DNA from: Escherichia phage AV118
DNA: 64,000 nt
Sequence record: OR352948.1
Strand: one strand, 5' to 3'
Below the pieces are notes generated by a model. That model was not told where the DNA came from. It did not search any database and was given only the letters and a program-made list of their open reading frames with translations. This document shows, piece by piece, positions 2,393-55,531 of the stretch. The position numbers were made by a program, and so were the translations under genes. The first letter of the stretch is position 1, and each line of letters begins with the position of its first letter.

Positions 2393-2414
2393 ACAAAAGG
2401 GAGCCGAAGCTCCC
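2393..2414 (-). terminator. C(UUCG)G hairpin followed by U-run on minus transcript, downstream of gene 52
   Basis: Plus-strand gggagc-cgaa-gctccc preceded by A-run (U-run on minus transcript). Confidence 0.5.
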
Positions 2415-2490
2415 TAATCATGTTTGTCCAACCAATACAGCCAAATCACTAGTGCAGCTATTGCGCCGAGAAATCCTAAGGCTATGGCAC

Positions 2491-10860: not shown

Positions 10861-10887
10861 ATTAAAATGAAGCTCCCGAAGGAGCTT
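10861..10887 (-). terminator. C(UUCG)G hairpin terminator overlapping stop of the HNH gene
   Basis: Plus aagctcc-cgaa-ggagctt. Confidence 0.45.
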
Positions 10888-11684
10888 AGGACATCCAACA
10901 CATTTTATAACCTTTGCAGGTTCTGTTAGGATTATTTAATGCTTTCAATATATTAGAAGACCCTATATCTAAATACTCCCTTAATTCATAAAGATAGTTA
11001 AAATCAATAGTTTCACCTGTTTTTACACTTGTGATTCTTATAGGCCTTCTTTCATATTTAGATTTATACAACTCTCTAGTCTTAGCTTTAGTTTCTTCTG
11101 ACCTAGGAGTGTATGGTTTAAATCCTTTTGTTTTAAATGTTTCCATTCTTGATTTAGTTATTTTATCCTGGTGTTCTTTTGTTTTTACAGGTGCTTTTCG
11201 CCCATTCTCCCAAGATAACTTGTTGGCCTGTATTATTTTATCTATTGCTTCTTGCGTATGAGTTTTACCATAAAATGGATTTAATTCGCCTATACGTTGT
11301 GAAGCAATATGTGACATTAATTCTCTTGTTGCTTTAGTATGTTTTTTTACCTTTAAATGGATTGCCATTTTTAGCAATCCATTCTTTCATAAATCTAGAG
11401 TGCTCTTTAGAGAATTCTTGTTTAAGCCAATCATAATCTCTAGAATTTCTAGCTCCCATGTAAAAAGCTCTAATAGCCATAAGCATAGAACGGTTCTTAT
11501 GAATTTTATAAAGCAATAAATGGGCGATAAAATGCTCTCTAGGGGTCATTTTAACTAGATTTGATTTAGCATTACTCCCACCCATAGATTTAGGCAAAAT
11601 ATGGTGAGTTTCAGTATAATTAGGAATAGTGCTGCGGTTTTTAGCCGCAGCGATAAGTTTATCATAAATTTTACGATAATTCAT
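10886..11684 (-). pseudogene. HNH homing endonuclease (HNH N-terminal domain + NUMOD3 C-terminal repeats) disrupted by +1 frameshift in an A7 run (plus-strand T-run 11342-11348)
   Basis: ORFs 11334-11684 (HNH motif ETHHILPKSMGGSN...REHFIAH) and 10886-11377 (NPFYGKTH NUMOD3 repeats) are in frames offset by 1; removing one A restores a continuous NPFKGKKHTKATREL reading; ATG at 11684 shares TAATG with gene 39 stop. Confidence 0.55.
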
Positions 11685-23386: not shown

Positions 23387-23908
23387 TCAGTAACCATTAT
23401 CCTGACGTTCAAAGTTGTGTTGGTTTTTCAAGTAGTAAAGTTTAAAGATTTCTTCAGCGGAAAGACCCAAACCTTGGAACATATTCAGAACAAAGTGGAG
23501 AATATCAATCATCTCGAATTTAATTTCAAGCTGGTCTTCAGGAGACAGTTCATCGATACGACGATTACGATATTCAGCATGTTGTGCTTTCCATGGCTTC
23601 CACACAGAGCTGGCAGCTTTTTCACCGTTGGACATACCACCGAGTGAAGTCAGCAGTTCACGGAATTCATCATCAATATAATCTTTCTGATTACGCAGCC
23701 AATCAACAACATCACCGGCAGTAGCCAATTCATCAGGATGTTTGTTATGTTCAGGCTTGTCATTTGCCAGACGAACCTGTAAAGATTTCTGCATATCAAG
23801 CATTACCTGCAGTGGGTCTTTATCTTCGTGAATCAGAGCATTAAAATAAGCTTCTTCTGCTTTATCAACACCAGAAATAAGTTGTGAACATTCGTTAAAG
23901 TGTGCCAT
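23387..23908 (-). CDS. 56: dCTP pyrophosphatase gp56 (MazG-like dCTPase/dUTPase, 173 aa from ATG at 23908)
   Basis: MAHFNEC N-terminus and overall pattern of T4 gp56; position between soc and 61. Confidence 0.7.
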   Translation of the reverse strand: MAHFNECSQLISGVDKAEEAYFNALIHEDKDPLQVMLDMQKSLQVRLANDKPEHNKHPDELATAGDVVDWLRNQKDYIDDEFRELLTSLGGMSNGEKAASSVWKPWKAQHAEYRNRRIDELSPEDQLEIKFEMIDILHFVLNMFQGLGLSAEEIFKLYYLKNQHNFERQDNGY

Positions 23909-25939: not shown

Positions 25940-26599
25940 TTAACCTCGATTCATAAATGCATTAAATATTTGGTCATCAACAGAAATTTCTAATTCGACT
26001 TCAATTGCTTCAGCCTTTTCTTCAGGTGGTAATTCGTATCCACACACTACAATTTTTTCATCGATATCAAAATATACAGAAGCAATACGATTAATGTTAT
26101 TTTCAGTTAAGTCTAAATCAACATCAACATCTTTTTGATCTACACTTAAAGGATAACTAATACGGGTTATTTTATTATCTTTAACAAAGAGTCCACCAAC
26201 ATACTCTGTACTACGTTTGAAGTTTACACGTTTCCGAATTGAAAGATATGATACATCTTTACCGTGAGCTCGGCTCATAGGACATAATGAATAGCTAGAA
26301 TAAGAGATGTCAAATCCTACACCTTCAATATGAGCCAACGTGTCATGATTAAACCAATTATAATCATATGCCAAATCCATTATATTGTAATATGTGAAAG
26401 GCACTGGATTAACATCATATGTTGTACCTTTAAAATCTGCCCAGGCAACGATTTCGTTATCTTTAACAATTACAAAAATTACACCAATATGGTATCCGTT
26501 ATTATTTTCATTCGGCGTTATATTATAACATTGTGCATTAGGAAATTTACCATATTTAAATGGCGCATTTTTGTGCATATAATAAATCATATTATTCAC
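25940..26599 (-). CDS. hypothetical protein (219 aa)
   Basis: Minus-strand ORF. Confidence 0.45.
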   Translation of the reverse strand: MNNMIYYMHKNAPFKYGKFPNAQCYNITPNENNNGYHIGVIFVIVKDNEIVAWADFKGTTYDVNPVPFTYYNIMDLAYDYNWFNHDTLAHIEGVGFDISYSSYSLCPMSRAHGKDVSYLSIRKRVNFKRSTEYVGGLFVKDNKITRISYPLSVDQKDVDVDLDLTENNINRIASVYFDIDEKIVVCGYELPPEEKAEAIEVELEISVDDQIFNAFMNRG

Positions 26600-26885
26600 C
26601 TGTGATTTCGGTTACGATATCTTTGTTATCGAAATTAGGGTCACAATACAAAACATAGTTGTACTGCATGATACCGCCAGACTTAAGTTGTTCAACAACT
26701 TTATTAACCATATTAGGACGGTCTCGTTTAGTGATGTTCATGATATCAGAGAAGATTTGTTGTTCAACATCTTCTTGATTTGCAGTCATTGACCACTCAC
26801 AGAGGTCTTTATCATAACCTGCCGTAACTGGAGCCGGTGCACATGATACTGCAAGTAAGATTGCTGCCAATGATAACTTTTTCAT
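26592..26885 (-). CDS. Secreted/lipoprotein-like periplasmic protein (97 aa), Sp (spackle)-like by size and position
   Basis: N-terminal signal peptide MKKLSLAAILLAVSC; T4 Sp is a 97-aa periplasmic protein in this neighbourhood. Confidence 0.45.
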   Translation of the reverse strand: MKKLSLAAILLAVSCAPAPVTAGYDKDLCEWSMTANQEDVEQQIFSDIMNITKRDRPNMVNKVVEQLKSGGIMQYNYVLYCDPNFDNKDIVTEITGE

Positions 26886-26948: not shown

Positions 26949-27197
26949 TTATTCTTTTTCGCGAATAATAATTACTTGTTGAGGCTGCTGAGCAGATTTC
27001 TTTTCGGCAACGATAGACCAAATTAAAGTTCCAATCCAACCAATCATCGTCCAGTTAAAGAGTAAAGATACAAAGAAGATTGCTGTTGTGCTTTTTGTGC
27101 CACGAATAAGTGCGATTACCCAAGGCAACATGTAAATGATGATTGAACCAATACCTGCGATTAAAACTGCTACTGAACTAGCTACGAATAATTCCAT
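26949..27197 (-). CDS. Small inner-membrane protein with two predicted TM helices (82 aa)
   Basis: Hydrophobic segments; size similar to T4 Imm (83 aa), which is missing from its usual 42-43 slot. Confidence 0.45.
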   Translation of the reverse strand: MELFVASSVAVLIAGIGSIIIYMLPWVIALIRGTKSTTAIFFVSLLFNWTMIGWIGTLIWSIVAEKKSAQQPQQVIIIREKE

Positions 27198-31776: not shown

Positions 31777-32325
31777 TTAACGAGCCCATTTGATGATTTC
31801 TGTAATCAAATCATTACGTTCGCTTGCATTAAATCCTATAACTTTGTTAGCACCATCATGATTAAGTAATTGATACGTTTGGATTTCGTTATGAATTGCA
31901 AACTCTTCAAAATGTGAAATGACTGTATTAAAACCGAATGAAGACAAAGTAATAAGGTCGTCTTCAAAACTTTCAGTCATTTCGTTACGTGTTAAAATAA
32001 TTGTGAACACATCATGGTTTTGGCAAAGACGAATATAATCCTGTTCATAAACGTCAAGAACCGAGTCCGCATCTTGTCGAATACGTCCGTAAACCCAGTT
32101 ACTAATATATCCACGGTCTAACAGATAAATCTTAGTAGGGTCTAAATAATTCAACATCGTTTCGAAACAGCCAACTTCATTTCGAGACTTAACATCGAAA
32201 CGTCCATCAACTGTTCGTTTAGGGAAATCAATCTTTACATATCTTTCACTAATTTCCATTATGTCATTAATGAAAGTTGTTTTACCAGCATTATCCGGTC
32301 CATCTACTAAAATAATTTTAGCCAT
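31777..32325 (-). CDS. P-loop NTPase, nucleoside/nucleotide-kinase-like (182 aa), in the beta-glucosyltransferase slot
   Basis: Walker A VDGPDNAGKTT near N-terminus; TAATG coupled to upstream 299-aa gene. Confidence 0.5.
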   Translation of the reverse strand: MAKIILVDGPDNAGKTTFINDIMEISERYVKIDFPKRTVDGRFDVKSRNEVGCFETMLNYLDPTKIYLLDRGYISNWVYGRIRQDADSVLDVYEQDYIRLCQNHDVFTIILTRNEMTESFEDDLITLSSFGFNTVISHFEEFAIHNEIQTYQLLNHDGANKVIGFNASERNDLITEIIKWAR

Positions 32326-32326
32326 T

Positions 32327-33226
32327 TTATTCCTCGATTACGACATCTTCATATTTAGGTATATTATATGGTGAAGAAATTAAAGCATTAAAGTAGATGA
32401 ACTCACCAAGACCTGGATGAAATACTTCTTCAGGATTTTCGAAATATTGAATCTTCGGACGTCCTTTAAGAATTTGATAGTACTCGGTTTTAGTTGGTTT
32501 AAAAATTCGAATCAACGCTTCTTCAGGATACTTATTTCTGTCAAAGCTATTATTTGGATCTGTTATATAAAGCGGTTGACCTAATTGAATTGCGCATTCA
32601 ACAACTTGTTCAAAACGATAGCATGGGTCACTAATTCGAAATGGATGAAAAATACCATCTAGATTAATAGGAGCCAAATCACCTACAAGACGCTGCATGA
32701 TGGAAGGACGTATAACTTTCTGCGTTACGATAATCTTATTACCATCTGCACCTGCGTTAACCAGCACTTCTTTTTGACGTTCATTCAACACAGTTGTTTG
32801 GATTGAACGATTAACCGACAATATGTCGGTTTTTAAGAATTCGTCAATATAAAAACGTGGTTTATTAGGGTCTGCGGTGATATTGAAATTGAATTCTACA
32901 TCAAAAGCGCCGTCATATCCAGTGATATCTGTGATTAGAAAATCACAATCATAATAAGCAATTAATGAATCAACCACAAATTCATTTTCAGACCAGAAAT
33001 ATTTACGAGTGTTATACGCGTTATCTTTATACCATAATGGAACAAACTTAAATTCTGGAAAAAGACGTTCGCATTCTTTAATATCAGATGCATTACGTGG
33101 ATATGTAATCACATCACCCGGATTAGCACGGTGCAAATGAAGTTGGAAGTTGCCATCCTTAAGGATAGCATACTGTCCAGTTTCATAAGACCGCATACTC
33201 AAGATAGGTACGCGGAAAATAGCCAT
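32327..33226 (-). CDS. Unknown protein (299 aa) in the beta-glucosyltransferase slot; candidate hmC-modifying transferase
   Basis: Translationally coupled to gene 42 (TAATG); no motif recognised by eye. Confidence 0.4.
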   Translation of the reverse strand: MAIFRVPILSMRSYETGQYAILKDGNFQLHLHRANPGDVITYPRNASDIKECERLFPEFKFVPLWYKDNAYNTRKYFWSENEFVVDSLIAYYDCDFLITDITGYDGAFDVEFNFNITADPNKPRFYIDEFLKTDILSVNRSIQTTVLNERQKEVLVNAGADGNKIIVTQKVIRPSIMQRLVGDLAPINLDGIFHPFRISDPCYRFEQVVECAIQLGQPLYITDPNNSFDRNKYPEEALIRIFKPTKTEYYQILKGRPKIQYFENPEEVFHPGLGEFIYFNALISSPYNIPKYEDVVIEE

Positions 33227-33942
33227 TAGTCAAGGAATCCTTTAACATAATCAAAATCACGTTCAAACACATGGGCACTTACCATGGTATGAGTATAATC
33301 ACCAACTTCTACACCACATTCGTTAGCGATATAATGAAGTAATTTTCCTTGGAGATAAAAATCCAACTGCATAACAACAGCACAGTTCTGAGAACGCATA
33401 TGACAGTGGGTATAAAGCTTACCATCACGAATATAATAAGTCACTGAGTCAGTACATGGATATTCAAGCGTTTCGTCTGAATCAAGCAAAGCCTGATCAG
33501 AACTTTCTAGAATTTGGAACACAACTCTTCGGGAGTTAGGCTTCTCTTTAAGTTCTTTTAGAAGAGCTGGTAATTGAGCCGCAATGCGAGGACCATAGAA
33601 AGTGTTGAAGTTCGCCGGCAAAACATCTGATTTTGGTTTAGAAATAAATTTAGCGACATTAGGATATGCCTTAAACGCTTCTTCTGCATTGGTACCACCA
33701 GAAATCATAAACTTCCAGAAGTCTTCGGCATATTCATAAGAGATGCGGTTAATACGTGGGTCGGTCATTTTGAATGTCGATGGAGTGTCAACAACTACTG
33801 TCATAGACCCAATTTCATTACAACGTCCAATACGAGAATCAGTTACGAATTCCGGGTTTTCTAAAATTTCACGATTGACTGCTTTAAATGCGGCTTGAAA
33901 ATCTGCGGCTTTGATATATTTCATTGTGTTATGTTTTCCCAT
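33226..33942 (-). CDS. 42: dCMP hydroxymethylase gp42 (thymidylate synthase fold, 238 aa)
   Basis: Catalytic Cys in YPCTD; MRSQN...D with Asp at the position that is Asn in thymidylate synthase (cytosine-specific). Confidence 0.8.
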   Translation of the reverse strand: MGKHNTMKYIKAADFQAAFKAVNREILENPEFVTDSRIGRCNEIGSMTVVVDTPSTFKMTDPRINRISYEYAEDFWKFMISGGTNAEEAFKAYPNVAKFISKPKSDVLPANFNTFYGPRIAAQLPALLKELKEKPNSRRVVFQILESSDQALLDSDETLEYPCTDSVTYYIRDGKLYTHCHMRSQNCAVVMQLDFYLQGKLLHYIANECGVEVGDYTHTMVSAHVFERDFDYVKGFLD

Positions 33943-33985: not shown

Positions 33986-34124
33986 TATTTGAATTTCTTG
34001 ACAATGTTGATATAACGTAAAGCTTCAGCATCGATACTTCCAAGAACACTATGAAGAAATGCGTCAGCGTAGTATTCCAATTGAACAGGTTTCTTTAATC
34101 ACTTTAGCCGCTTTAGTTTTAAAC

Positions 34125-34144
34125 AGGCCCATCAGGGCCTTTTT
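34125..34144. terminator. Hairpin aggccc-atca-gggcct followed by T5 on plus strand (terminator-like)
   Basis: Read directly; orientation ambiguous. Confidence 0.3.
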
Positions 34145-34221
34145 AAGAATTTGTTCGTTAGTGTTCAGTTTAATAGTCAAAATCTCTTCGTTAAGTTTAT
34201 AATTAAAAGTTTTTCTAGAAA

Positions 34222-35382
34222 TCATTCCGGGTACCTCAAAGCGTCATCAGAGTTAGTTATATCAATAATAGATATAGAGTTTTCTGCTAACCCGTTTTTA
34301 GATAATTGACGTTTATAATATCTTTCACAATATGTACACGTCGTCCCGCAGATTTCATTAGCACAATCGAAATCTGGATGTCTGAACCACCTTTTTTCTA
34401 AAAAGCCATCTAACAAAGAGGTTTCAATATTTACTGTATGTGAAAACTCAGTTTCGTTTTCAAGAGTGAAAATGGTCTCTAAAGGCTTCCACAGTTCTAA
34501 CAAATTACCTTCAAACTTTTCAGAAGCGTATGCTTCAAGAACTTTCAAAATGTAGTCTGTGCTACCTGTACGTCCTGAAACTTTGAATTGAGTGATACCA
34601 ATATCATTATAAAGTTTCAAATCTTGAGGACGAACAAAACGAGTTCTCAACCAGTTAAATGGGTCTGTATCACGAGCTTTAATACAGTGCTGCATAGGAT
34701 ATCCGTTTAAGGATTTAGCATCATCAGCTGTAACATCAGTACTATGGAAAATATAGCAAGAGTCACGATAGCTACAATGTGTTGTATACCCTTTACCAGC
34801 ATTAGAACAGAACTCATTTACAAGAACTTCAAATATTATATTGTTCTTATTGCAAAACTCTGCTGCACGCTTCAGGAAAGAAACTGAACGGTTCTTATGA
34901 ATTCCACAGCAGACCTTTTTGATATTATATTGGTCATGCAAGTATTTGATTTGAGTTACAGCATCGACATGTAGAATTGTTGAAACTTCAATCTCAATGT
35001 CTTTATTGACTTCACGAACAATTTCCATAACAACAGGGTTAGCGATAGTAATACGCCATACGCCTATTGACCAAAGATACTGAACATAATCCTGAATAGC
35101 TTTCTTCTTCCACTCAACTAGTTCTCTTTTTGAACCAGGATTTATCGTGTTGAGTGTATAGTTAAAGCAAATACCTAATTCGTTACAACGTTTAACGTAA
35201 TCTTCTAACATCTTTTTGTCAACGTCAGGAAGCCTAAAATCAGGTCTGGCTGCTACAAAAGCCATTTCTCTTGTAGAGCCGTATACTTCGTTTATCAAGC
35301 TATTAGGATAAGTTTTATTGAGCTCTACGATTTTATCAAGAAGAGCTAAATCAAAATTCGTTCCAATTTTAAAAGTATTCAT
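34222..35382 (-). CDS. Cys-rich enzyme of unknown function (386 aa from ATG at 35382; ORF track GTG start 35397), possible Fe-S / U32-peptidase-like TIM-barrel protein
   Basis: C-terminal CxxxCxxC (CGTTCTYC) plus further Cys pairs; N-terminal VYGS...ARPDF...ELGI.F.YTLNT pattern reminiscent of U32 family. Confidence 0.45.
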   Translation of the reverse strand: MNTFKIGTNFDLALLDKIVELNKTYPNSLINEVYGSTREMAFVAARPDFRLPDVDKKMLEDYVKRCNELGICFNYTLNTINPGSKRELVEWKKKAIQDYVQYLWSIGVWRITIANPVVMEIVREVNKDIEIEVSTILHVDAVTQIKYLHDQYNIKKVCCGIHKNRSVSFLKRAAEFCNKNNIIFEVLVNEFCSNAGKGYTTHCSYRDSCYIFHSTDVTADDAKSLNGYPMQHCIKARDTDPFNWLRTRFVRPQDLKLYNDIGITQFKVSGRTGSTDYILKVLEAYASEKFEGNLLELWKPLETIFTLENETEFSHTVNIETSLLDGFLEKRWFRHPDFDCANEICGTTCTYCERYYKRQLSKNGLAENSISIIDITNSDDALRYPE

Positions 35383-35438
35383 TTTTTTGCATCTCACGTT
35401 AATTGATGCGATGGTTTTTGCAGGTCTTACTTAAATTA

Positions 35439-35840
35439 TTATAGATTCGGTTTATATGATTTAAATGTTTCGAATTCGCCTTTATTCATAAGAGCTTTGA
35501 ATTCGTCAGGACGCATAGCTTTGTCGTCGATAATCCAATCATATACTGGTTTATGTGTTAGCAAATTATGGTACTTCAAACCAATGTTTTCCAAGTTCTG
35601 AATCAGACTTGGGAGAATGTCAATTGCTATACGTCCAGGACCTACTGACTTCATACCGCGAGCAGTGTAAAGCGTTATGGTATGCCCTGCATCATACAGG
35701 GCATTAATGGCAGACACCATTTCGACGTCTGGTTTGAAGTTCACGTAATCACGATTGTTATTCCACTCTGTTATACAATCATCGACATCAAAACAAAGAT
35801 TAAGCATGTTTTCTACACGGTGCATTAGATTCGTTCCCAT
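35439..35840 (-). CDS. HAD-superfamily phosphatase (133 aa), KdsC-like candidate sugar-phosphate phosphatase
   Basis: HAD motif I FDVDD, motif II TARG, Lys, and DD motif (WIIDD). Confidence 0.55.
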   Translation of the reverse strand: MGTNLMHRVENMLNLCFDVDDCITEWNNNRDYVNFKPDVEMVSAINALYDAGHTITLYTARGMKSVGPGRIAIDILPSLIQNLENIGLKYHNLLTHKPVYDWIIDDKAMRPDEFKALMNKGEFETFKSYKPNL

Positions 35841-37510
35841 TGATGAGTGATATCGCCACCGATTGGACGATAGGAAACACCAGTTTCTTTATCAGTTAGT
35901 ACCCATTTACCAGGATTTTTTGTAATCAGAGTAGCCGTTACAGGTTCTGCTACGTCATAACTAATAGAGCCGTCTTGAAGTACACGGCCCATATTACGTA
36001 ATTGCTTAGTCAGAAGTTCCATACCTTTATAATATGCGGCTACCGCTTTAAGTGGATTATTCTTGAAATAACCACCTAATGCAATCCAGATAATTGCCAC
36101 TGCCAAATGATGATACTCGTTAAACGAACTCATCTTTCCATATTTGTAAACTAATGGATTGATGTTAATAGTCACATTACAAGTTGTTTCATCAATAGTA
36201 AACTGTCCCCAGGTCGGATTAGCATTGAATTCATCATAACCTGAAACAGCATAAAGCACTTTAGCTTCATCATACAATTTTGGCCCGTAAATCTTGGTTT
36301 CGCCAAAATATCCACGAGGGTCGATAAACTTGACTTCGCCGTTATCAGTAATCATAGTATTACTGAAGTTCGGGTCACCATGAATAACAGAGTACTGTCC
36401 CTGAGAACGGTTATGATAACGAATAAGGTGTTCTAAAGCTTGTTTCAGCATTGGCTTCAGACGTCCAATCTTAGTGTAGTTCACATGTGTGATTTTACCA
36501 AATGAATCAATCAATGGTTGAATGCTTTCACAACGATCAATAACTTTCGTATAGAATTCTTTAGTGAAATCACGACGAACAGTTTCAGGACTTACAAAAT
36601 AAGTGTCTGTGCTGAATTTCAGTGCATCTAAAATTGCATCAACAATTTGTGGACGAGCAAGACTTGATTTGGATTTAATATATTCAAATGCCGGCTTACC
36701 TTTAATGCGTTCCATTTCAAAGTTATTTTCATTAACAGAAACTAACTGAGGAACTGAATCTGATTTCACTTTCAAATACCACGAAATCTCATCTTTCTGA
36801 AGAGCTCGACCCTGTTCGGTTAATGCGAATTTAGTTACAGTTTCTTCACCAATTTCAACTGCATTAAAACTACGATTAAGTTCACGAACTTCATGAGCCT
36901 TTTCAAGTTTAGGCATATCACCAAGGTCGATGATATTCATAAGCTCTGATTTATTGAATGCGCCACTGTAAAGGAATTCTACGAAATCACGTCCTTTGCA
37001 GTATTCATGAATTTCCTCATCAGTAGAACCCATATAGAATTCCCAGTCTTTGAACTGATAAATTCCTACAACATTACCACCTGTTGAACCTACGTTAGTG
37101 ATATTTTCACCGTCGAAATTATATCGACATTCGTCACCCTTAACATAGATTGCATTAACATTCCAAGACCATGAACCAAAATCGGGAATAATATCACACC
37201 AGTTAACAATTACGTTATGGCCGTCTAAATCTTTGTGTAATTTAGCAAGAGCATAAGCAGAACCATACGCTTCATCAACTGTACGAATAGTCACATTGAA
37301 CCCTTCTTGCTCACAATAAGCTCGAACAGTTTCAGCAAATTTTGAATGAACTACTACAATAATTTCATCTGCGCCAAGGTCAGAATAAATTGTATACAAA
37401 TTGCTCAGAATAGTGTCTTGTTTATAGTTAACAAGCACCTTAGGAATATGATGCGTTATTGGATACAAACGAGTTGCCAGTCCAGCACCAAGAATAACAG
37501 CTTTTTTCAT
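35825..37510 (-). CDS. Bifunctional sugar-1-kinase (APH/choline-kinase fold) / sugar-1-phosphate nucleotidyltransferase (561 aa)
   Basis: N-terminal nucleotidyltransferase motif AVILGAGLATRL; C-terminal kinase Brenner motif HGDPNFSN and FIDPRG; GAGGA Shine-Dalgarno. Confidence 0.65.
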   Translation of the reverse strand: MKKAVILGAGLATRLYPITHHIPKVLVNYKQDTILSNLYTIYSDLGADEIIVVVHSKFAETVRAYCEQEGFNVTIRTVDEAYGSAYALAKLHKDLDGHNVIVNWCDIIPDFGSWSWNVNAIYVKGDECRYNFDGENITNVGSTGGNVVGIYQFKDWEFYMGSTDEEIHEYCKGRDFVEFLYSGAFNKSELMNIIDLGDMPKLEKAHEVRELNRSFNAVEIGEETVTKFALTEQGRALQKDEISWYLKVKSDSVPQLVSVNENNFEMERIKGKPAFEYIKSKSSLARPQIVDAILDALKFSTDTYFVSPETVRRDFTKEFYTKVIDRCESIQPLIDSFGKITHVNYTKIGRLKPMLKQALEHLIRYHNRSQGQYSVIHGDPNFSNTMITDNGEVKFIDPRGYFGETKIYGPKLYDEAKVLYAVSGYDEFNANPTWGQFTIDETTCNVTININPLVYKYGKMSSFNEYHHLAVAIIWIALGGYFKNNPLKAVAAYYKGMELLTKQLRNMGRVLQDGSISYDVAEPVTATLITKNPGKWVLTDKETGVSYRPIGGDITHQWERI

Positions 37511-37551
37511 GTTGAAGTCCTCATTGGTAAGTAGGAGTATTGTACACTATT

Positions 37552-37695
37552 CTAGTTAAAGCATTCATACTTTGCTTGTAGTCCAATCATAATCCATCCA
37601 ATTACAAGTGTTGGAATCATTACCGGAGCCGTTAAGCTCCAGTAGATAGTCATGACAAGCATCAATAGTAAAAGTCCTATTGTTATTGCTTTCAT
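37552..37695 (-). CDS. Small membrane protein (47 aa), below ORF-track threshold
   Basis: ATG at 37695 overlaps stop of SIS gene (ATGA); translation MKAITIGLLLLMLVMTIYWSLTAPVMIPTLVIGWIMIGLQAKYECFN. Confidence 0.35.
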   Translation of the reverse strand: MKAITIGLLLLMLVMTIYWSLTAPVMIPTLVIGWIMIGLQAKYECFN

Positions 37696-38327
37696 TGTTC
37701 GCCTCGTAACATGGCACCTAGTGCACCGCCTGGATGGAACTTAAGGAAATCATTAGAGGTAAATCCACGTTCAGACGAAAGGTTGATAGCAAACGTATCG
37801 ATAAGCGCTAACAACAATGTAGTGGACATTGTCGGAGCTAAAGAGTTCTCGTCAACTTCTACCGCGATACCAGTACAGAACGTATAATCAAAAAGAGCTT
37901 CGTATTCTTGTGGAATGTCAGGGTTACAATGTAACAGAATCTGTTTAACCTGAGGACGAATCATACGAAGATGTTTAGCAACACCTATCATTTCTTCAGT
38001 CTTACCAGAACGACTGATGTGAACTAATACATCATTAGGTGCAATAAATCCTGCGTCACCATGAGAATAATGCCCAGTGTTCAAGTACATACTTGGGATA
38101 CCGAGTGAAGCAAAAGTCTCGGAAGCTTTAGTTGCGATATTAGCGTTCTTACCAACACCTGTAATAATTACCCGGCTTTCATAATTACTAAGTCCAGGGC
38201 GTCGAAGAGTTTCTAGAATAGCGTTATAACGAGCAGGGTTTTGACTAATTACTTTAGCCATAGTGGCAAGAGATGAAGCTTGTTTTACGATTGCGTCAAT
38301 AGCGATAGTGATTGGTGTAGTTTTCAT
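37692..38327 (-). CDS. SIS-domain sugar-phosphate isomerase, arabinose-5-phosphate isomerase (KdsD/GutQ/KpsF)-like (211 aa)
   Basis: SIS motifs GVGKNANIATKASETFASLGIPS...HGDAGF...HISRSGKTEE closely follow the KdsD pattern. Confidence 0.7.
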   Translation of the reverse strand: MKTTPITIAIDAIVKQASSLATMAKVISQNPARYNAILETLRRPGLSNYESRVIITGVGKNANIATKASETFASLGIPSMYLNTGHYSHGDAGFIAPNDVLVHISRSGKTEEMIGVAKHLRMIRPQVKQILLHCNPDIPQEYEALFDYTFCTGIAVEVDENSLAPTMSTTLLLALIDTFAINLSSERGFTSNDFLKFHPGGALGAMLRGEQ

Positions 38328-38367: not shown

Positions 38368-41079
38368 TCAAAAATCAAACATATCGAACAGAGATGCTTT
38401 CTTCTCGTAATCGAGTTTAGCTGCTGATGTGAATCCTTCAAGTGGTTTAATAAATGTCTTCTCAAGGAGAACAGTGTAGTCCATCCAATGAAGTACATCG
38501 TCTTTAATTAAATCTGTGATTTCAGTACCAGAAGGCCATGCGATACATTTATCACCGAATGGGTTTCCTTCACGTAAAGGCAGAACATATACTTTTTCAC
38601 CTTCTACAACTTGCGGTGCATCGATATTACCTTTGATAGCCCGGTTATACGTCAGAATTCCACGAATATGGAACGGGCATTTAGGACCAGGGAATCCACC
38701 GACATCATATTTAGCAATGTTATTCGCAGAAGATACCGACGCGATGCTAATATAATTCAATTGACGGAATTCTTTTTCAAACTCTTTAAAATATTCTTGT
38801 AATGATTCTTCACCTTCTTGAAGCATACGACGAATACATTCTTTAAGAGCTTTCTGTACTGCTTTAGGGGTCGAAGATTTCTGAGTCTCTAGACCCATGA
38901 TTTTGAGTTTAGGCTCAGCGTAACGAGTGCCTTCCATATCCCACACGTTTAATGCATAACGTTTCTTACCAGTCCAGAATCCACCAATACCTTTAGAACC
39001 GAGCGGAGGACCAGCGATAGCTTCTCGGTCCATGAACATTAAGTGTTGTTTATTGTTCATGTATTCACACATTTCACGGAAACCTCTATCAATAGCTGGT
39101 TCCATACGTTCACGTGCAAACTTATCTAAGAAGTCTACCCAATGGTTGGTATCACGGAATTTAGATTCACCAACCTTATCGATAATTTTATCAGCAGATA
39201 CGTAAATAGAGTCTGTATCACCATAAAGAACGAAAGCTTTACCTTCTGTACCACAAACTTCATTCAGATATTCATTAACTTTACGTTCAATCCACTGTAA
39301 AGCCATTTGCCCGAATGTTGTGATTGCAGTAGCATTACGCAAATCATAATAACGGAACCAAACGTTGCCAAGTGCACCATAAAGTGAGTTGATAAGCAAT
39401 TTACGGTTAATTTGTGCAGTCATACCTGCAACTTCAGTACGTTGAGCTCTAAACAACATTTCATTAAGAGATTTAGCAGACAACTTTTTAATCTTTTCTT
39501 TAATCTCATCACTGAAGTCGAAACGATAATCAACATCTAATGGTTCGTCAATAGAAAGATTAGGATTATGCAATGCCTCTTTAATTATTTCACCATTACG
39601 TTGAGCTGCAAGCATGTAACCTTTATGTTCTTTACGTTGATTAAAGACCTTAGTGATTTCAGTTGGAACTACACCATCACGGTCTTTATAATACATCATG
39701 CCGTTAGGAGAGCAACTGTACACATCTGAAGGACGTTCAGCGATTGCGTTAATATAATCATGCAATGGAGCTACTTTAAACGTTCCTGCTATTGTTTCCG
39801 GGCTAATATTCACTTGGCGAATAATACTTGGATACAGAGATGTAAGGTCGAAACTCATTACATATTTGTATCGATTTGGAATAGGTTCCTTAACAAAAGC
39901 GCCAGGATAAGGTTGAACCGGGTGAGAACGACCTTGTGGAATCACCTTGTTTTGTTCTTTAAGGCTATTAAAAATAATAGCATCCCAAGTTTTAATTGGA
40001 CTGAACACAGATTGAATCTGAATTTTAGCATAATAACCCATGTCCAAGCTCAAGTTGATGAACTGACGCTTAGAATCAATTTGCAATACACGATACACGT
40101 CGATAATGTTATAAGAAATATATCGTTGGTGATTGCTTTCACGAAGCTTAGAAATAGGGCCGTCATATTTCAGTTTACCAACGTTCAATTCAAATTCTGA
40201 AATGTAATCCAGAGAATACGACGGTTGATTGGTAAAAGAGAATTTTTTGTAAAGGTCAATGTAATCAAGAACAGAGATACCGAACAATGTAATGATTTCA
40301 CGAGAACCATACATGTTTTCGATAACTTTAACACGAGTTTTACGATGTGGCGATAAACGTTTCGCAGTAGATTCGCCAAAAATATTCTTGATTCGGTTAT
40401 ACACATATGGAATATCAAATGACTCAACGTTCCATCCGGTTAAAATGACAGGAGTTTTCTGTTGCCAGAAATTGAGATATTCCATCAATAATTCTTTTTC
40501 ATTATCAAACGGCATATAAACAATTTTGTCGATAATTTCGGATGGAACTTCATCACCACCTTGTTCTTGAAGCTTAGCCGCAATTTCGATAGACCATTCT
40601 TCTACATTGCCGTATGGAGAATTCAAAAGGTCAAATACGTAGAACCTGTCGTCAATTGAGTCATAATGGGTGATAGCATCAATCGGATGTTTTGCTTGTG
40701 ACGGCTCAGGGAACCCGTCCGGAGATGTTACTTCGATGTCGAAGTTAGCCACACGAATTTTTGTATGGTCGTATTTGATTTCATAGTTATAAGTGTCAGA
40801 CAAATACGCCAATTTGAAATCGTCCATGCCAAGTGCTTCAAGTCCGATATCTTCCATGCGTTTAATCCATTGGGAGGCATCACGCATATTAGCGAACAAC
40901 TTACGAGTACACGGCTTACCGTAGATATCGAAATATTTCGTAGCCTGACTTTCCGGACAATGAGCAAACAGTGATGGTTTATATTCTACTTCACGAGTAC
41001 GTTCACGGCCATTAGAATCGATGTAACGTTCAAAAATTGAATCACCAATCTGTTCAACCGTTAAGTAAAATTCTTTCAT
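38368..41079 (-). CDS. 43: DNA polymerase gp43 (family B, 903 aa)
   Basis: Exo motifs (FDIE), Pol motifs (DxxSLYPS, YGDTDS); size as T4 gp43. Confidence 0.95.
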   Translation of the reverse strand: MKEFYLTVEQIGDSIFERYIDSNGRERTREVEYKPSLFAHCPESQATKYFDIYGKPCTRKLFANMRDASQWIKRMEDIGLEALGMDDFKLAYLSDTYNYEIKYDHTKIRVANFDIEVTSPDGFPEPSQAKHPIDAITHYDSIDDRFYVFDLLNSPYGNVEEWSIEIAAKLQEQGGDEVPSEIIDKIVYMPFDNEKELLMEYLNFWQQKTPVILTGWNVESFDIPYVYNRIKNIFGESTAKRLSPHRKTRVKVIENMYGSREIITLFGISVLDYIDLYKKFSFTNQPSYSLDYISEFELNVGKLKYDGPISKLRESNHQRYISYNIIDVYRVLQIDSKRQFINLSLDMGYYAKIQIQSVFSPIKTWDAIIFNSLKEQNKVIPQGRSHPVQPYPGAFVKEPIPNRYKYVMSFDLTSLYPSIIRQVNISPETIAGTFKVAPLHDYINAIAERPSDVYSCSPNGMMYYKDRDGVVPTEITKVFNQRKEHKGYMLAAQRNGEIIKEALHNPNLSIDEPLDVDYRFDFSDEIKEKIKKLSAKSLNEMLFRAQRTEVAGMTAQINRKLLINSLYGALGNVWFRYYDLRNATAITTFGQMALQWIERKVNEYLNEVCGTEGKAFVLYGDTDSIYVSADKIIDKVGESKFRDTNHWVDFLDKFARERMEPAIDRGFREMCEYMNNKQHLMFMDREAIAGPPLGSKGIGGFWTGKKRYALNVWDMEGTRYAEPKLKIMGLETQKSSTPKAVQKALKECIRRMLQEGEESLQEYFKEFEKEFRQLNYISIASVSSANNIAKYDVGGFPGPKCPFHIRGILTYNRAIKGNIDAPQVVEGEKVYVLPLREGNPFGDKCIAWPSGTEITDLIKDDVLHWMDYTVLLEKTFIKPLEGFTSAAKLDYEKKASLFDMFDF

Positions 41080-53246: not shown

Positions 53247-53717
53247 TTAATCATGTTTCCACACCCCATCGGTATTTGACCAAAGTCGCTGATTATCTGA
53301 TCCTCGCCACAGCTTTTTAGTCGGAAGATTTTTCTCATACTTCCCATCAATAATAACATCAACATATTTAAGCATTTCTAGTTGTTTAATATCTTCAAAA
53401 TTATATCCTGTCCACAACCAAATGCTTTTATTGGGATAAAGATTTTTAATAGTTTGAACCACAGAGTGAATCACATCTCTGTTATCAGGATAGAGAGGGT
53501 CACCTCCGGTTATAGTCAATCCTTCTATATAATCATTATTCAAACATTCAATTAATTGTTCTAGTGTTTCACCAGTGAATGGAATACCATTTCTAGCATT
53601 CCATGTTGATTTATTATAACACCCTTCGCATTTATGCAAACAACCCGTAACGAAAAGAACGACCCTGCAACCAGGGCCATTCACAAAATCGCAAGGATAA
53701 AATCTATCATAATTCAT
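53247..53717 (-). CDS. nrdG: Anaerobic ribonucleotide reductase activating protein NrdG (radical SAM, 156 aa)
   Basis: N-terminal CxxxCxxC (GCLHKCEGC); ATGA coupled to nrdD. Confidence 0.85.
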   Translation of the reverse strand: MNYDRFYPCDFVNGPGCRVVLFVTGCLHKCEGCYNKSTWNARNGIPFTGETLEQLIECLNNDYIEGLTITGGDPLYPDNRDVIHSVVQTIKNLYPNKSIWLWTGYNFEDIKQLEMLKYVDVIIDGKYEKNLPTKKLWRGSDNQRLWSNTDGVWKHD

Positions 53718-55531
53718 TGGTGTTTAACCCTATGCATGATTTCTTTATTTTTACCGAGATTAAATCCGCGTTCGTTCGGATTTCCCAAATAACCGCATGT
53801 TCTTCTTATGGTGTTCATCTTTTTAGGATCAGTTTCTCCACAGATAGAACAAACAAATCCGTTTTCAGTAGGAGTCATTTCATGGGTACTTCCACATGTA
53901 AAACATTTATCTACTGGCATATTAACACCAAAATAATCTAAATGTTGTGCAGCATAATCCCACACGGCCTCAAGTCCTTTTAAGTTATTTTTCATATCAG
54001 GAAGTTCAACATAAGAAATGTGACCACCTGTCGCAATGAAATGATATGGCGCTTCACGAGAAATCTTTTCAAACGGAGTAATATTTTCTTCTACTGAAAC
54101 GTGGAAACTGTTAGTGTACCAGCCTTTATCGGTAACATCTTTTACACTTCCATATTTTTCTGTATCGAGTTTACAGAAGCGATAACAAAGGTTTTCAGCA
54201 GGAGTCGAATATAAACTAAAAGCAAATCCAGTTCTTTCGGTCCACTGCTTAAGATGAGCATTCATTTTAGTTAAAATTTCTTGCCCAATATCACGACCGA
54301 CAAGAATATTCAATTCGTGAATACCAATGTATCCTAAAGACACTGAACTTCTACCGTTTTTAAATAACTCAATTATGTCGTCATCAGGTTTAAGACGAAC
54401 CCCGAATGCACCTTCTTGGTAAAGAATAGGAGCTACAGTTGCTTTAACACCCTTTAAAGAACTAATTCTACACATCAAGGCTTCAAAACACAGATCCATT
54501 CGTTCATTGAATAATTCAACAAATTTCTGTTCATTGAACTGTGTTCCAATATAAGAATCTAATGCGATACGAGGAAGATTCAGTGTTACAACGCCGAGAT
54601 TATTACGACCGTCAAGAATTTCATTTCCAGTTGAATCTTTCCATACGCTCAAGAAACTACGGCAACCCATCGGAGAAACTGGAACTGAAGAACCGGTAAT
54701 AGCTTTATTATTCTTAACTGAAATAATGTCAGGATACATTCTTTTGCTTGCACATTCTAACGCAAGTTGTTTAATATCATAGTTTGGATCATCTTTATAA
54801 AGATTAACACCTTCTTCAAAAAACATAACAAGCTTAGGGAAAATAGGAGTTATTCCATCACGTCCAAGGCCTTTAATGCGGTTTTTAAGAATTGCCTTCT
54901 GAATCATTCGTTCAGTCCAGTCAGTTCCTGTACCAAATGTAATTGTTACAAAAGGTGTTTGTCCGTTTGAACTAAAGAGAGTATTTACTTCATATTCATA
55001 AGCTTGGAATGCATCGTATACATCTTTTTCTGTTTTAGATTGAGCATAATTCAACGCATCAGCGATTTGCCATTTTTCTGCATCCTCAATATGTTTTGCA
55101 TAGGTGCGTTTAACATAAGGAGAAAGTACTTTATCTACATTAGCAAAAGTCGTTCCGCCGTATTGATGGGAAGCAACCTGTGCAGTAATTTGTGCCATAA
55201 TTGCAGTAGCAACACCGATTGATTTAGGAGTTTCAATCTGTGCATTACCAAGCTTAAATCCATTCTCAAGCATTCCTTTTAAATCTACTAAACAGCAATT
55301 AGTAAAAGGCAATGATATACTGTAATCTAAATCGTGAAAATGAATTAATCCGACATTATGAGCATTTACAATATGGCTCGGAAGAATACTACAAGCGATA
55401 TGTTTAGAAACAATACCGGCCATTAAATCTCTTTTTGTTGGAAAGACACGAGAATCTTTGTTGGCATTTTCGGTATTTAATTCTTTATCTTTATTTGAAA
55501 TAAAATTTAAAACATCTTTCTCTAAAGACAT
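53714..55531 (-). CDS. nrdD: Anaerobic ribonucleoside-triphosphate reductase NrdD (605 aa), uninterrupted
   Basis: C-terminal zinc-ribbon Cys cluster and glycyl-radical region; size as T4 NrdD. Confidence 0.9.
   Translation of the reverse strand: MSLEKDVLNFISNKDKELNTENANKDSRVFPTKRDLMAGIVSKHIACSILPSHIVNAHNVGLIHFHDLDYSISLPFTNCCLVDLKGMLENGFKLGNAQIETPKSIGVATAIMAQITAQVASHQYGGTTFANVDKVLSPYVKRTYAKHIEDAEKWQIADALNYAQSKTEKDVYDAFQAYEYEVNTLFSSNGQTPFVTITFGTGTDWTERMIQKAILKNRIKGLGRDGITPIFPKLVMFFEEGVNLYKDDPNYDIKQLALECASKRMYPDIISVKNNKAITGSSVPVSPMGCRSFLSVWKDSTGNEILDGRNNLGVVTLNLPRIALDSYIGTQFNEQKFVELFNERMDLCFEALMCRISSLKGVKATVAPILYQEGAFGVRLKPDDDIIELFKNGRSSVSLGYIGIHELNILVGRDIGQEILTKMNAHLKQWTERTGFAFSLYSTPAENLCYRFCKLDTEKYGSVKDVTDKGWYTNSFHVSVEENITPFEKISREAPYHFIATGGHISYVELPDMKNNLKGLEAVWDYAAQHLDYFGVNMPVDKCFTCGSTHEMTPTENGFVCSICGETDPKKMNTIRRTCGYLGNPNERGFNLGKNKEIMHRVKHQ

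Follow-up and report, generated by a model that had tools for sequence, protein, structure and literature searches.

The interval at positions 34222–38327 of the window (the whole 64,000-nucleotide stretch of Escherichia phage AV118 DNA analysed here) is, with a probability of about 0.85, the sugar-activation half of a Mosigvirus (RB69-type) DNA hypermodification cluster. It is occupied by five minus-strand ORFs, flanked by the DNA polymerase gene and a ThyA homologue (Table 1), and encoding a SIS isomerase, a small membrane protein, a bifunctional kinase/nucleotidyltransferase, a HAD phosphatase and a Cys-rich protein. The same genes had been described in the initial annotation; that observation is confirmed, and the interpretation attached to it is partly supported. 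The functional cluster runs on downstream to position 31777, through a hydroxylase, a glycosyltransferase and a kinase. This extension had been overlooked, as had a sixth small ORF (34064–34225).

The window is identified as a Mosigvirus of the RB69 group, the type of system suspected initially, by its DNA identity of 98–99% to 150+ published Mosigvirus records. Given this identity, the island is not new but corresponds to the previously described UDP-arabinofuranose module of RB69-type phages. Mahler 2025 and He 2026 have reportedly described this module as well. It is covered by Thomas 2018, by the annotation of Bas46, in which the same genes are assigned to UDP-arabinose biosynthesis, and by Lee 2026 (PMC13326640); the latter two bear out the earlier proposal of a sugar-nucleotide pathway that begins at an arabinose-5-phosphate isomerase and provides DNA glycosylation with a sugar donor other than UDP-glucose. 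Gene set and order match those of the RB69/Mosigvirus arabinosyl-5-hydroxycytosine pathway (RB69 gp45–gp55 and gp3; HY126 Afh enzymes; Bas46/Bas47), the common order being gp55, gp52:53 (AfhE), gp51 (AfhF), U32 gp50, ORF049, gp48, gp46:47 and gp45. The differences are allelic only: ORF049 is frameshifted by one additional A that Bas46 and RB69 lack and AV116 shares, and gp46:47 and gp52:53 are intact in the window, whereas sequencing errors split both in the RB69 reference record.

Table 1 Features of the hypermodification cluster and associated genes in the window
Feature	Position	Strand	Basis or remark
DNA polymerase	38368–41079		Flanks the island
Single-domain SIS arabinose-5-phosphate isomerase, RB69 gp55 homologue, 211 aa	37692–38327	−	Profile matches
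Membrane ORF, RB69 ORF054c, T-even gp42.1 homologue, 47 aa	37552–37695	−	tblastn; phrog_3610
Bifunctional kinase/nucleotidyltransferase, RB69 gp52:53 / HY126 AfhE homologue, 561 aa	35825–37510	−	Pfam; RB69 identity
Small HAD-type phosphatase, RB69 gp51 / HY126 AfhF homologue, 133 aa	35439–35840	−	TIGR01689; phrog_1238
Cys-rich U32-family TIM-barrel protein, RB69 gp50, 386 aa	34222–35382	−	Pfam Peptidase_U32
ORF049, frameshifted remnant, 53 aa of 79 aa	34064–34225	−	Extra A; phrog_8601
ThyA-superfamily 5-hydroxy-dCMP synthase, FMN/O2-dependent, RB69 gp48 homologue	33226–33942	−	Identity and D169N signature
DNA arabinosyltransferase 1 candidate, RB69 gp46:47 homologue, 299 aa, intact	32327–33226	−	phrog_3891, E 2.3e-155
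Thymidylate-kinase-like nucleotide kinase, RB69 gp45 homologue	31777–32325	−	phrog_761 thymidylate kinase, E 1.9e-45
dCTPase/dCDPase, gp56 homologue	23390–23908	−	100% identical to Bas46_0125
Second DNA arabinosyltransferase, RB69 gp3 / Bas46_0103 homologue	9746–10843	−	Outside the interval initially annotated

Profile searches of each protein recovered the isomerase, nucleotidyltransferase and HAD phosphatase, and the kinase fold weakly. The isomerase scores 39 bits against Pfam SIS and, as its KdsD/GutQ-type motifs had suggested, 110.7 bits against NCBIfam KpsF/GutQ and 105.3 bits against KdsD; it also matches the PHROG ‘arabinose 5-phosphate isomerase’ (E 2.4e-116), a function predicted for the RB69 gp55 type in Lee 2026 (PMC13326640). 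The 561-aa protein, 99% identical to that of RB69, matches Pfam NTP_transferase at its N-terminus (residues 3–99, 39 bits), with weak kinase-fold matches towards its C-terminus (308–409; Pfam Fructosamin_kin, EcKL and RIO1). The phosphatase matches the TIGR01689 capsule biosynthesis phosphatase family (E 1.9e-13). Its start is annotated at 35825 in relatives, corresponding to 128 aa.

The isomerase would divert ribulose-5-P to arabinose-5-P, which the C-terminal kinase domain of the 561-aa enzyme would convert to arabinose-1,5-bisphosphate; the HAD phosphatase would then take off the 5-phosphate, and the N-terminal nucleotidyltransferase domain would join the resulting Ara-1-P with UTP to form UDP-arabinofuranose. 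This is the route given for the HY126 homologues in Lee 2026 (PMC13326640), citing He 2026, in which the bisphosphate is made by the kinase domain of AfhE, AfhF removes the 5-phosphate and free arabinose is bypassed. The pathway drawn initially keeps its isomerase step to arabinose-5-phosphate and its final step from sugar-1-phosphate to NDP-sugar, with arabinose-1,5-bisphosphate taking the place of the free sugar. By analogy, these steps and those of base synthesis and glycosyl transfer can be ascribed to the window’s proteins, having been demonstrated or reported for homologues that are nearly identical.

The ThyA homologue at the downstream flank had been taken for the gene 42 dCMP hydroxymethylase. 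That identity was rejected: the protein shares 98% identity with RB69 gp48 and 26% with T4 gp42, and carries N at the position of E. coli D169 (the D169N signature) and D at that of N177, which indicate a 5-hydroxy-dCMP synthase. This activity has been demonstrated for RB69 gp48, which needs O2 and by itself suffices for 5hodC formation aerobically (Lee 2026, PMC13326640). Virion DNA of the RB69 group has arabinose on cytosine (PMC6024577, PMC13326640, PMC13390438), and the modified base is an ether-linked arabosylated 5-hydroxycytosine (Lee 2026, PMC13326640; PMC13390438) instead of the arabinosyl-hmC suggested earlier. In the window, the dCTPase/dCDPase would feed dCMP to the hydroxylase(s), the ThyA homologue would yield the base as 5-hydroxy-dCMP using FMN and O2, and the two glycosyltransferases would link 5-hydroxycytosine in DNA to one arabinose or several. 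The first of these has its gene beside that of the hydroxylase in every Straboviridae locus examined and corresponds to the gp46:47 arabinosyltransferase of Table 1 in Lee 2026, where the gp45 kinase is also listed (PMC13326640); the second is 94.8% identical over 366 aa (tblastn) to Bas46_0103, a ‘putative hmC-arabinosyltransferase’.

The T4 glucosyl-hmC pathway (gp56 dCTPase, gp42 hydroxymethylase, gp1 kinase and alpha/beta-glucosyltransferases) follows the same logic of dCTP depletion, modification of dCMP by a ThyA-family enzyme, phosphorylation, polymerisation and glycosylation on DNA, and likewise uses the genomic slot that separates gene 43 from uvsX. T4, in contrast, takes its UDP-glucose from the host and can do without genes for sugar activation; D169 is retained in its gp42, which forms hydroxymethyl-dCMP independently of O2.

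The Cys-rich protein, previously placed in the sugar route, is not evidently a sugar enzyme. By sequence it belongs to the U32 family of TIM barrels, as a divergent member with homology to TrhP, RlhA and UbiU/V. The ORF, 386 aa from ATG or 391 aa from GTG (to 35397), scores 42.2 bits against Pfam Peptidase_U32 (cut-off 22.4), and HHalign gives 98.8% with TrhP/RlhA/UbiU/UbiV, with which it has a K-x-x-G-R motif in common and on whose canonical Cys 1, 2 and 4 its C203, C209 and C233 align. The only named NCBIfam families matched by members of the phage family are TrhP and UbiU, and pairwise comparison with E. coli U32 proteins gave no significant similarity. The canonical CX6CX15CX3C is broken, with proline at Cys3 and C209 conserved in just 62% of the wider family; the arrangement is instead C192-x10-C203-x5-C209-x23-C233, followed by an extra C-terminal C-x4-C-x3-C-x2-C. 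Eight near-invariant cysteines stand in Fe-S-like spacing.

Comparative genomics suggests that this protein lies outside the sugar route and points, on balance, to base hydroxylation, the somewhat favoured role being that of a prephenate-dependent, O2-independent (anaerobic) pyrimidine C5-hydroxylase. Of 16 non-Mosig Straboviridae loci, 15 have a chorismate mutase gene as the next gene downstream of U32 or separated from it by a single small ORF (ORF049). Annotated ends were read for two loci, Entb_45 and Thanatos-2, and in both the stop codon of U32 is overlapped by a genuine AroQ chorismate mutase gene (CM_2, 40.9 and 32.8 bits). More distant U32 genes, 34–55% identical, abut DAHP synthase (L025, L050, L066), a DAHPS::CM fusion (L033) or chorismate mutase (L035, L037, L050). 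Distant loci also carry dNMP kinase, MazG dCTPase, dCMP deaminase and glycosyltransferases, and a ThyA homologue is absent from 28 of them within the sequence stretch examined. Across 30–89% identity the neighbours are consistently deoxynucleotide enzymes (ThyA-like, TMK-like kinase, MazG, dCMP deaminase, NT5C, dNK, nucleoside deoxyribosyltransferase and DNA polymerases).

U32 is the best-conserved protein of the cluster (79–89% identity versus 42–73% for AfhE). AfhE was found in 57 records of Acinetobacter phages; no Acinetobacter appears among the organism names listed for 221 U32 matches, so that at most two such records could carry U32. The Acinetobacter host is a strict aerobe. The Acinetobacter phages DLP3/DLP1 (Lazarusvirus) share with the window the order of the isomerase, AfhE-like protein, HAD phosphatase, ThyA-like hydroxylase, glycosyltransferases and kinase, the proteins being 46–70% identical, but lack U32, ORF049 and chorismate mutase, and have additional glycosyltransferases for a third arabinose. 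E. coli Dhakaviruses such as JS98 also have the pathway without U32, which marks the gene as accessory and as only imperfectly linked to host aerobiosis.

U32 Fe-S proteins have been tied to prephenate-dependent, O2-independent hydroxylation, including formation of ho5U and ho5C (PMC6599085, PMC5727448, PMC10990095, PMC11574389), although passages of the U32 literature that deal with the activity report no direct in vitro demonstration for any U32 protein. TrhP (tRNA ho5U34), RlhA (23S rRNA ho5C2501) and UbiU/UbiV (anaerobic ubiquinone hydroxylation) match the phage protein in the U32 TIM barrel and at three of four Fe-S cysteines; TrhP and RlhA are implicated in pyrimidine C5 hydroxylation, the chemistry needed for the phage base, and the genetic prephenate dependence of these systems is matched by the genomic coupling of phage U32 to prephenate supply. 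The phage protein differs in its rearranged Cys pattern, in being virus-encoded, and in a context that suggests a deoxynucleotide substrate, not RNA or quinone. The protein may thus be a divergent Fe-S enzyme that hydroxylates C5 of a pyrimidine deoxynucleotide, here dCMP, with prephenate in place of O2 as oxygen donor. Since the chorismate mutase gene coupled to U32 in sister genera is missing from Mosigviruses, the phage would depend on host prephenate. If so, U32 would let the phage make 5-hydroxycytosine anaerobically, by analogy with the pairing of O2-dependent and O2-independent enzymes known in bacteria (UbiI/H/F and UbiU/V; TrhO and TrhP). Counted in favour of an anaerobic role was the O2 requirement of the known hydroxylase in a phage that nevertheless carries anaerobic NrdD/NrdG. 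Counted against a U32 hydroxylase were the window’s lack of a chorismate mutase, the missing Cys3, the insignificant pairwise similarity to E. coli U32 proteins, the aerobic sufficiency of RB69 gp48 and the U32-free Dhakaviruses.

It is unlikely that all five genes form a single sugar pathway, as initially proposed, leading from Ara5P through free arabinose and C1 phosphorylation to activation, with U32 as a sugar or sugar-nucleotide reductase or epimerase. Table 1 of Lee 2026 does contain the entries ‘dephosphorylates Araf5p to Ara’ and ‘phosphorylates Ara to Araf1p’ and labels gp50 a ‘sugar or heterocycle reductase’ (PMC13326640), and U32 accompanies SIS and AfhE-like genes in several metagenomic phages (L032, L033, L036, L038, L040). 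The text of the same paper, however, takes Ara5P to UDP-Ara with AfhE and AfhF only; tri-arabinosylated 5hoC is made without any U32 in Acinetobacter phages such as DLP3; other loci have U32 without SIS or AfhE, alongside kinase, dCTPase, deaminase and glycosyltransferase genes (L028, L031, L034, L046, L050, L060); and linkage to chorismate mutase and DAHP synthase would be senseless for a sugar reductase.

There is a slim chance that U32 is a TrhP/RlhA-like RNA hydroxylase, producing ho5U or ho5C in host or phage tRNA or rRNA to tune translation, and lies in the cluster by chance. Its nearest named families, and the RNA substrates of the characterised pyrimidine-hydroxylating U32 proteins, fit such a role; against it stand the absence of the C-terminal domains of TrhP and RlhA (386 aa versus 453 and 653), the constancy of the deoxynucleotide-enzyme neighbourhood and the co-occurrence with DNA glycosyltransferases that require a 5-hydroxyl acceptor. 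A collagenase-like peptidase for lysis or host takeover is very improbable: the GenBank and PHROG labels ‘peptidase’, ‘collagenase-like protease’ and ‘putative protease’ are carried over from the family name, the cysteines and nucleotide-metabolism surroundings argue otherwise, and Fe-S U32 ‘oxidases’ are set apart from putative peptidases in reviews. Least credible is a role of the island in auxiliary metabolism of host surface sugars (KDO, capsule or LPS), which would suit the KdsD/KpsF-like isomerase and the phosphatase’s best match but not the arabinose on virion cytosine, the absence of both KdsA and KdsB from the cluster or its contiguity with a base hydroxylase, a DNA glycosyltransferase and a nucleotide kinase.

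The start of the ORF049 remnant overlaps the U32 stop codon (ATGA). Its identification as a chorismate mutase was rejected, there being no CM_2 match and an HHalign probability of 0.3% against the chorismate mutase family. The 47-aa membrane ORF lies inside the island yet, judged by its homologues, is not specific to it: tblastn found them in 575 phage records, including T4, T2, T6 and RB14 (‘gp42.1’), and the statement that the island’s genes are absent from the T4 layout fails for this one. Nor does the island, initially noted to lie where T4 carries imm, replace that gene; imm has moved, and is present at 26952–27197.

The island between the DNA polymerase gene and a thymidylate synthase (ThyA) homologue is an RB69-type arabinosylation island, already known and with published biochemistry. 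All of the ORFs that the initial annotation had placed in it are present on the minus strand, and profile searches supported its domain calls of an isomerase, a kinase/nucleotidyltransferase and a phosphatase. The 4.5 kb around the island match over 150 Mosigvirus genomes with 98–99% identity; that of Escherichia phage AV116 comes closest (99.2%). The RB69 counterparts of the island genes are gp55, ORF054c, gp53/52, gp51, gp50 and ORF049c; those in Bas46 (ChristianSchoenbein) are labelled ‘putative enzyme involved in UDP-arabinose biosynthesis’, ‘putative phosphatase’ and ‘putative phosphosugar isomerase’. Comparison with RB69 yielded near-identical genes (gp52:53, 99%; gp48, 98%), and the AfhE-type ORF, named after its HY126 homologue, is intact, with an NTP_transferase N terminus and a kinase-fold C terminus. 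This settles a point that had been left undecided: the gene set does have a described counterpart, the RB69-type UDP-arabinose module.

Features of the arabinosylation system and related genes in the window, with radical SAM/SPASM genes near U32 in other contigs
Feature	Position	Strand	Details
Second arabinosyltransferase, gp3-like	9746–10843		94.8% identical to Bas46_0103
dCTPase	23390–23908		
spackle	26595–26885		neighbour of imm
imm	26952–27197		
Thymidylate-kinase-like kinase	31777–32325		
Glycosyltransferase, gp46:47-like	32327–33226		299 aa; phrog_3891
Thymidylate-synthase homologue	33226–33942		one flank of the island
ORF049	34064–34225		53 aa (79 aa in RB69 and Bas46); phrog_8601
Cys-rich U32 protein	34222–35382	−	ATG at 35382, 386 aa; GTG at 35397, 391 aa; Peptidase_U32
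HAD-type phosphatase	35439–35840	−	133 aa; capsule-type HAD phosphatase family
AfhE-type bifunctional protein	35825–37510	−	561 aa; NTP_transferase residues 3–99; weak kinase-fold matches in C-terminal half
Hydrophobic ORF	37552–37695	−	47 aa
SIS protein	37692–38327	−	211 aa; single-domain; KpsF/GutQ 110.7 bits; KdsD 105.3 bits; PHROG API E 2.4e-116
DNA polymerase	38368–41079		other flank of the island
NrdG and NrdD genes	53250–55531		94–96% identical to Bas46
Radical SAM/SPASM, L046/L047/L049	~2090–3030		near U32
Radical SAM/SPASM, L060	1–249		near U32
Radical SAM/SPASM, L061	15608–17005		near U32
Radical SAM/SPASM, L065	11160–12185		near U32

GC content and base composition in general stay level along the island, which gives no compositional hint of recent import, and a scan for promoters and terminators found no more than in shuffled sequences. 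The island, noted to lie where T4 carries imm, did not replace that gene, which is kept elsewhere in the window, beside spackle. In phage JS98, imm stays beside gene 43 together with a 42.1-like ORF. Nor is the 47-aa membrane ORF absent from the T4 layout: tblastn matches come from 575 phage records, among them those of T4, T2, T6 and RB14 with gp42.1, and its homologues are often unannotated in T4, T2, T6 and other phages. The small ORF that follows the U32 gene, ORF049, is shortened in the window by a frameshift near position 34090, where an A-rich run contains one extra A (AAAGAAACC). AV116 has the same allele, so this is a true variant rather than a read error, and ORF049 appears to be dispensable or decaying in the AV118/AV116 lineage.

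Thomas et al. 2018 (PMC6024577) were the first to point out the module. In the published route, gp55 converts Ru5P to Ara5P, gp52:53 acts as Ara5P 1-kinase and UDP-arabinose pyrophosphorylase, and gp51 is an Ara-1,5-bisphosphate 5-phosphatase (Lee et al. 2026, PMC13326640); the roles of gp52:53 and gp51 go back to the biochemistry of HY126 AfhE and AfhF by He et al. 2026, as cited in PMC13326640. The initial annotation was right about the island and outdated in its chemistry. It had proposed a path through free arabinose, whereas the published route passes through arabinose-1,5-bisphosphate (PMC13326640), although Table 1 of that paper retains an older wording. It had also invoked arabinosyl-hmC, whereas DNA of the RB69 group carries arabinose ether-bonded to 5-hydroxycytosine, with mono- or poly-arabinosylated forms identified in virion DNA of RB69 and Mosigvirus NP by LC-MS/NMR (PMC13326640, PMC13390438). 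For AV118 virion DNA we infer arabinosylated 5-hydroxycytosine only from the 98–99% identity.

The neighbouring gene taken for a dCMP hydroxymethylase (‘gene 42’) proved to be 98% identical to RB69 gp48, an FMN- and O2-dependent 5-hydroxy-dCMP synthase, and 26% identical to T4 gp42. This ThyA homologue has N where the E. coli enzyme has D169 and D where it has N177 (aligned motifs: window, RSQN...QLD; T4, RSND...RND; E. coli, RSCD...PFN), and the D169N (and N177D) signature marks 5-hydroxy-dCMP synthases (Lee et al. 2026, PMC13326640). As a flavin-binding enzyme, RB69 gp48 incorporates 18O from O2, and it is alone sufficient aerobically (PMC13326640). The system reaches beyond the 34222–38327 interval, to two glycosyltransferases, a thymidylate-kinase-like kinase and a dCTPase.

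The island itself is therefore nothing new; its value lies in a hypothesis on the Cys-rich U32 protein, the homologue of RB69 gp50, that is specific and testable and has apparently not been published. The protein matches Pfam Peptidase_U32 (PF01136) with 42.2 bits, above the gathering cut-off of 22.4 bits, and has a TIM-barrel fold like that of 5D88, which was the sole match of a PDB profile search with the family; a PDB search with the single sequence found nothing. Its relatives number 1185 among 1.84 billion representative proteins, mostly of 350–390 aa with end-to-end matches, and 83 of 90 aligned relatives match the Pfam family. In pairwise BLASTP, neither RlhA nor UbiU of E. coli gave significant similarity, and homology to the E. 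coli U32 proteins is visible by profile–profile comparison only (HHalign against TrhP, RlhA, UbiU and UbiV: 98.8% probability, E 1.1e-16). The only named NCBIfam families touched by members are TrhP, the prephenate-dependent tRNA uridine(34) hydroxylase, and UbiU, in both cases far below the curated equivalog cut-offs: the window protein scores 18.5 bits against UbiU (cut-off 440), and the best family member reaches E 5.3e-10 against TrhP.

Residues R46, N78, S134, R165, C192, C203, C233, P252, Y258, K267, R271 and Y285 are near-invariant, as is a C-terminal set, C340-x4-C345-x3-C349-x2-C352. The canonical CX6CX15CX3C [4Fe–4S] motif is not intact: HHalign places C203, C209 and C233 on its first, second and fourth cysteines, the third aligns to P229, and the invariant C192 lies further upstream. 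The protein therefore belongs to a U32 subfamily of its own, divergent, with its cysteines rearranged and probably with a second metal site. A radical SAM assignment, considered in view of the C-terminal CX3CX2C, found no support: that superfamily has the motif near the start of a partial TIM barrel, along with Radical_SAM profile and fold matches, and the protein does not conform.

Characterized U32 proteins are associated with hydroxylation. TrhP is needed for the O2-independent, prephenate-dependent formation of ho5U in tRNA, with TrhO as its O2-dependent counterpart (PMC6599085); RlhA is needed for ho5C2501 in 23S rRNA (PMC5727448); and when ubiquinone is made anaerobically, UbiU/UbiV take over from UbiI/H/F, which are flavin monooxygenases, and draw the oxygen from prephenate (PMC10990095). 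None of them has been shown directly to hydroxylate in a reconstituted in vitro system, because the substrates are RNAs or membrane quinones. For the phage protein, the table of Lee et al. 2026 lists RB69 gp50 as a ‘sugar or heterocycle reductase’ without discussion, and the discussion of that paper names tRNA hydroxylation pathways without tying them to gp50 (PMC13326640); PMC13390438 mentions an ‘epimerase’ in the cluster and describes the full pathway as not characterized. In the literature covered, to which Mahler 2025 and He 2026 did not belong, no published link was found between U32, prephenate or chorismate mutase and phage 5-hydroxycytosine.

We propose that the U32 protein is a C5-hydroxylase of dCMP or another pyrimidine deoxynucleotide that would use prephenate as oxygen donor and one or more Fe–S centres for electron transfer, making 5-hydroxycytosine available when O2 is absent; we give this reading a probability of about 0.55. 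The reasoning is this: gp48, the published hydroxylase, requires O2; the bacteria infected are gut-dwelling facultative anaerobes; among the genes of the window are those of an anaerobic ribonucleotide reductase, NrdD/NrdG, which shows that the phage is equipped for O2-free replication; unmodified cytosine should be costly, because a cytosine-DNA endonuclease, DenB, is also phage-encoded; and bacteria have such pairs of enzymes twice, UbiI/H/F with UbiU/V and TrhO with TrhP. How these phages of gut Enterobacterales, which bring an anaerobic ribonucleotide reductase but a published hydroxylase that depends on O2, modify every cytosine without O2 is a question that has gone unasked and that a U32 hydroxylase, if real, would answer. 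The host range of phages without U32 would then depend on oxygen, and a soluble phage enzyme acting on dCMP and prephenate would offer a tractable model for U32 chemistry.

The link to prephenate is genomic. DAHP synthase is the entry step and chorismate mutase the last step towards this compound, and one or both are encoded beside U32 in Straboviridae genera and in distant phages. In Entb_45 (Enterobacter) and Thanatos-2 (Shewanella), an AroQ chorismate mutase gene overlaps the U32 stop codon (Pfam CM_2, 40.9 and 32.8 bits; cut-off 27), and in an iterative search 15 of 16 Straboviridae loci from outside Mosigvirus showed a chorismate mutase closely following U32. The Thanatos-2 cluster (L003, MT457553.1 54323–67411) is rearranged and lacks the isomerase, with U32 and chorismate mutase still adjacent; the Thanatos paper reports a deoxypentose, not arabinose, and has ‘no valid hypothesis’ as to where the cytosine hydroxyl comes from. 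In distant viral contigs, where U32 is 34–55% identical, DAHP synthase abuts U32 in L025, L050 and L066, chorismate mutase does so in L035, L037 and L050, and a DAHP synthase::chorismate mutase fusion does so in L033 (DAHP_synth_1, 88.7 bits; CM_2, 71.8 bits). The possibility that the DAHP_synth_1 neighbours are KdsA, of the KDO pathway fed by the isomerase, was rejected: NCBIfam identifies them as Bacillus-type DAHP synthases, with 203–330 bits against 65–101 bits for KDO8P synthase in two unfused copies and 131.5 against 46.8 bits in the chorismate mutase fusion. No chorismate mutase was detectable anywhere in the 64-kb window, so the AV118 enzyme would rely on host prephenate. That ORF049 might be a degenerate chorismate mutase was also rejected: HHalign gave 0.3%, Pfam CM_2 matched neither the window nor the Bas46 ORF049 (the Entb_45 and Thanatos-2 ORFs pass), and in some genera U32, ORF049 and chorismate mutase occur in tandem (L013, L018, L021, L026).

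The strongest rival is that U32 acts on the sugar, but UDP-arabinose needs only AfhE and AfhF, Acinetobacter phages form the same arabinosylated product without U32, and the link of U32 to prephenate supply is not one that a sugar role calls for. Less probable than a sugar role are an RNA hydroxylase, the activity ascribed to TrhP and RlhA; a peptidase, as the Pfam name would have it; and, for the island as a whole, a host-surface sugar module.

The U32 gene was found by tblastn in 221 phage records of many genera, each with at least 81.6% identity. Across 16 Straboviridae loci with U32, its product is 79–89% identical, compared with 71–83% for the ThyA-like protein, 42–73% for AfhE and 48–72% for the glycosyltransferase; it is the most conserved cluster protein in 13 of them, the HAD phosphatase being equal or higher in L002, L015 and L019. 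U32 is present in nearly all Klebsiella, Shigella, Proteus and Yersinia phages with the pathway. Of the 373 phage records with an AfhE homologue, 57 are from Acinetobacter phages, and no Acinetobacter phage is among the organism names listed for the 221 U32 records, where at most 2 are possible. A strict aerobe/anaerobe rule is only partly upheld, as E. coli Dhakaviruses lack U32. Dhakavirus JS98 (L004, NC_010105.1 18573–32243) encodes AfhE, the HAD phosphatase, the kinase, the ThyA-like protein and the glycosyltransferase without the SIS isomerase and U32, and presumably draws Ara5P from host KdsD/GutQ. The U32 gene is thus accessory in some E. coli phages, and JS98 offers the U32 hypothesis a natural control.

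At distant loci, U32 is accompanied by thymidylate-kinase-like kinases, MazG/dUTPase-type pyrophosphatases, dCMP deaminases (one fused to a kinase), UDG, NT5C, deoxynucleoside kinase, nucleoside deoxyribosyltransferase, DNA polymerases, UvsX and homologues of the cluster glycosyltransferase. A ThyA homologue is absent from 28 of these loci within 12–17 kb around U32. L028, L031 and L034 have the order dCTPase, kinase, glycosyltransferase, U32, DNA polymerase, which is the logic of T4 with U32 in the place of gp42. After the DNA polymerase, L028 carries a 182-aa ThyX-like ORF (10864–11409; Pfam Thy1, 29.8 bits) and no ThyA homologue.

The odds are about even that the gp50-type proteins are the founders of a subfamily, carried by viruses, of pyrimidine-deoxynucleotide C5-hydroxylases that depend on prephenate and not on O2. 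Its Mosigvirus members would be anaerobic twins of the O2/FMN-dependent 5-hydroxy-dCMP synthase, and in many uncultured phages with no ThyA nearby U32 would be the primary hydroxylase. The products would be glycosylated, perhaps methylated (5-methoxy), DNA pyrimidines, and in some phages an own chorismate mutase or DAHP synthase would supply the oxygen donor. The subfamily is widespread in uncultured phages beside kinases, deaminases, glycosyltransferases and methyltransferases, which points to further 5-oxy-pyrimidine DNA modifications.

A dCMP deaminase gene lies directly upstream of U32 in L060 (7447–9086) and L046 (4471–6518); it is free-standing in L060, a 466-kb contig, and fused to a thymidylate-kinase-like kinase in L046, L047 and L049. 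This adjacency suggests that in some phages a uracil nucleotide is hydroxylated or 5-hydroxy-dCMP undergoes deamination. Outside the Straboviridae, the U32 homologues that come closest (38–49% identity) are in the Bacillota-like metagenomic contigs L061/L062 (6018–9053) and L065 (4912–8098), where U32 is preceded by a GP88-like gene and by genes for a 414-aa guanylate-kinase/SAM-methyltransferase protein and a 250-aa protein, with SAM synthetase, NT5C, dNK, a PnuC-type transporter and nucleoside deoxyribosyltransferase nearby. In Bacillus tRNA, ho5U is converted to mo5U, and by analogy these contigs could encode a pathway to a 5-methoxy-pyrimidine nucleotide. Radical SAM/SPASM genes occur within a few kilobases of U32 in unrelated phage and MAG contigs, and L065 contains a second, more divergent U32 paralogue.
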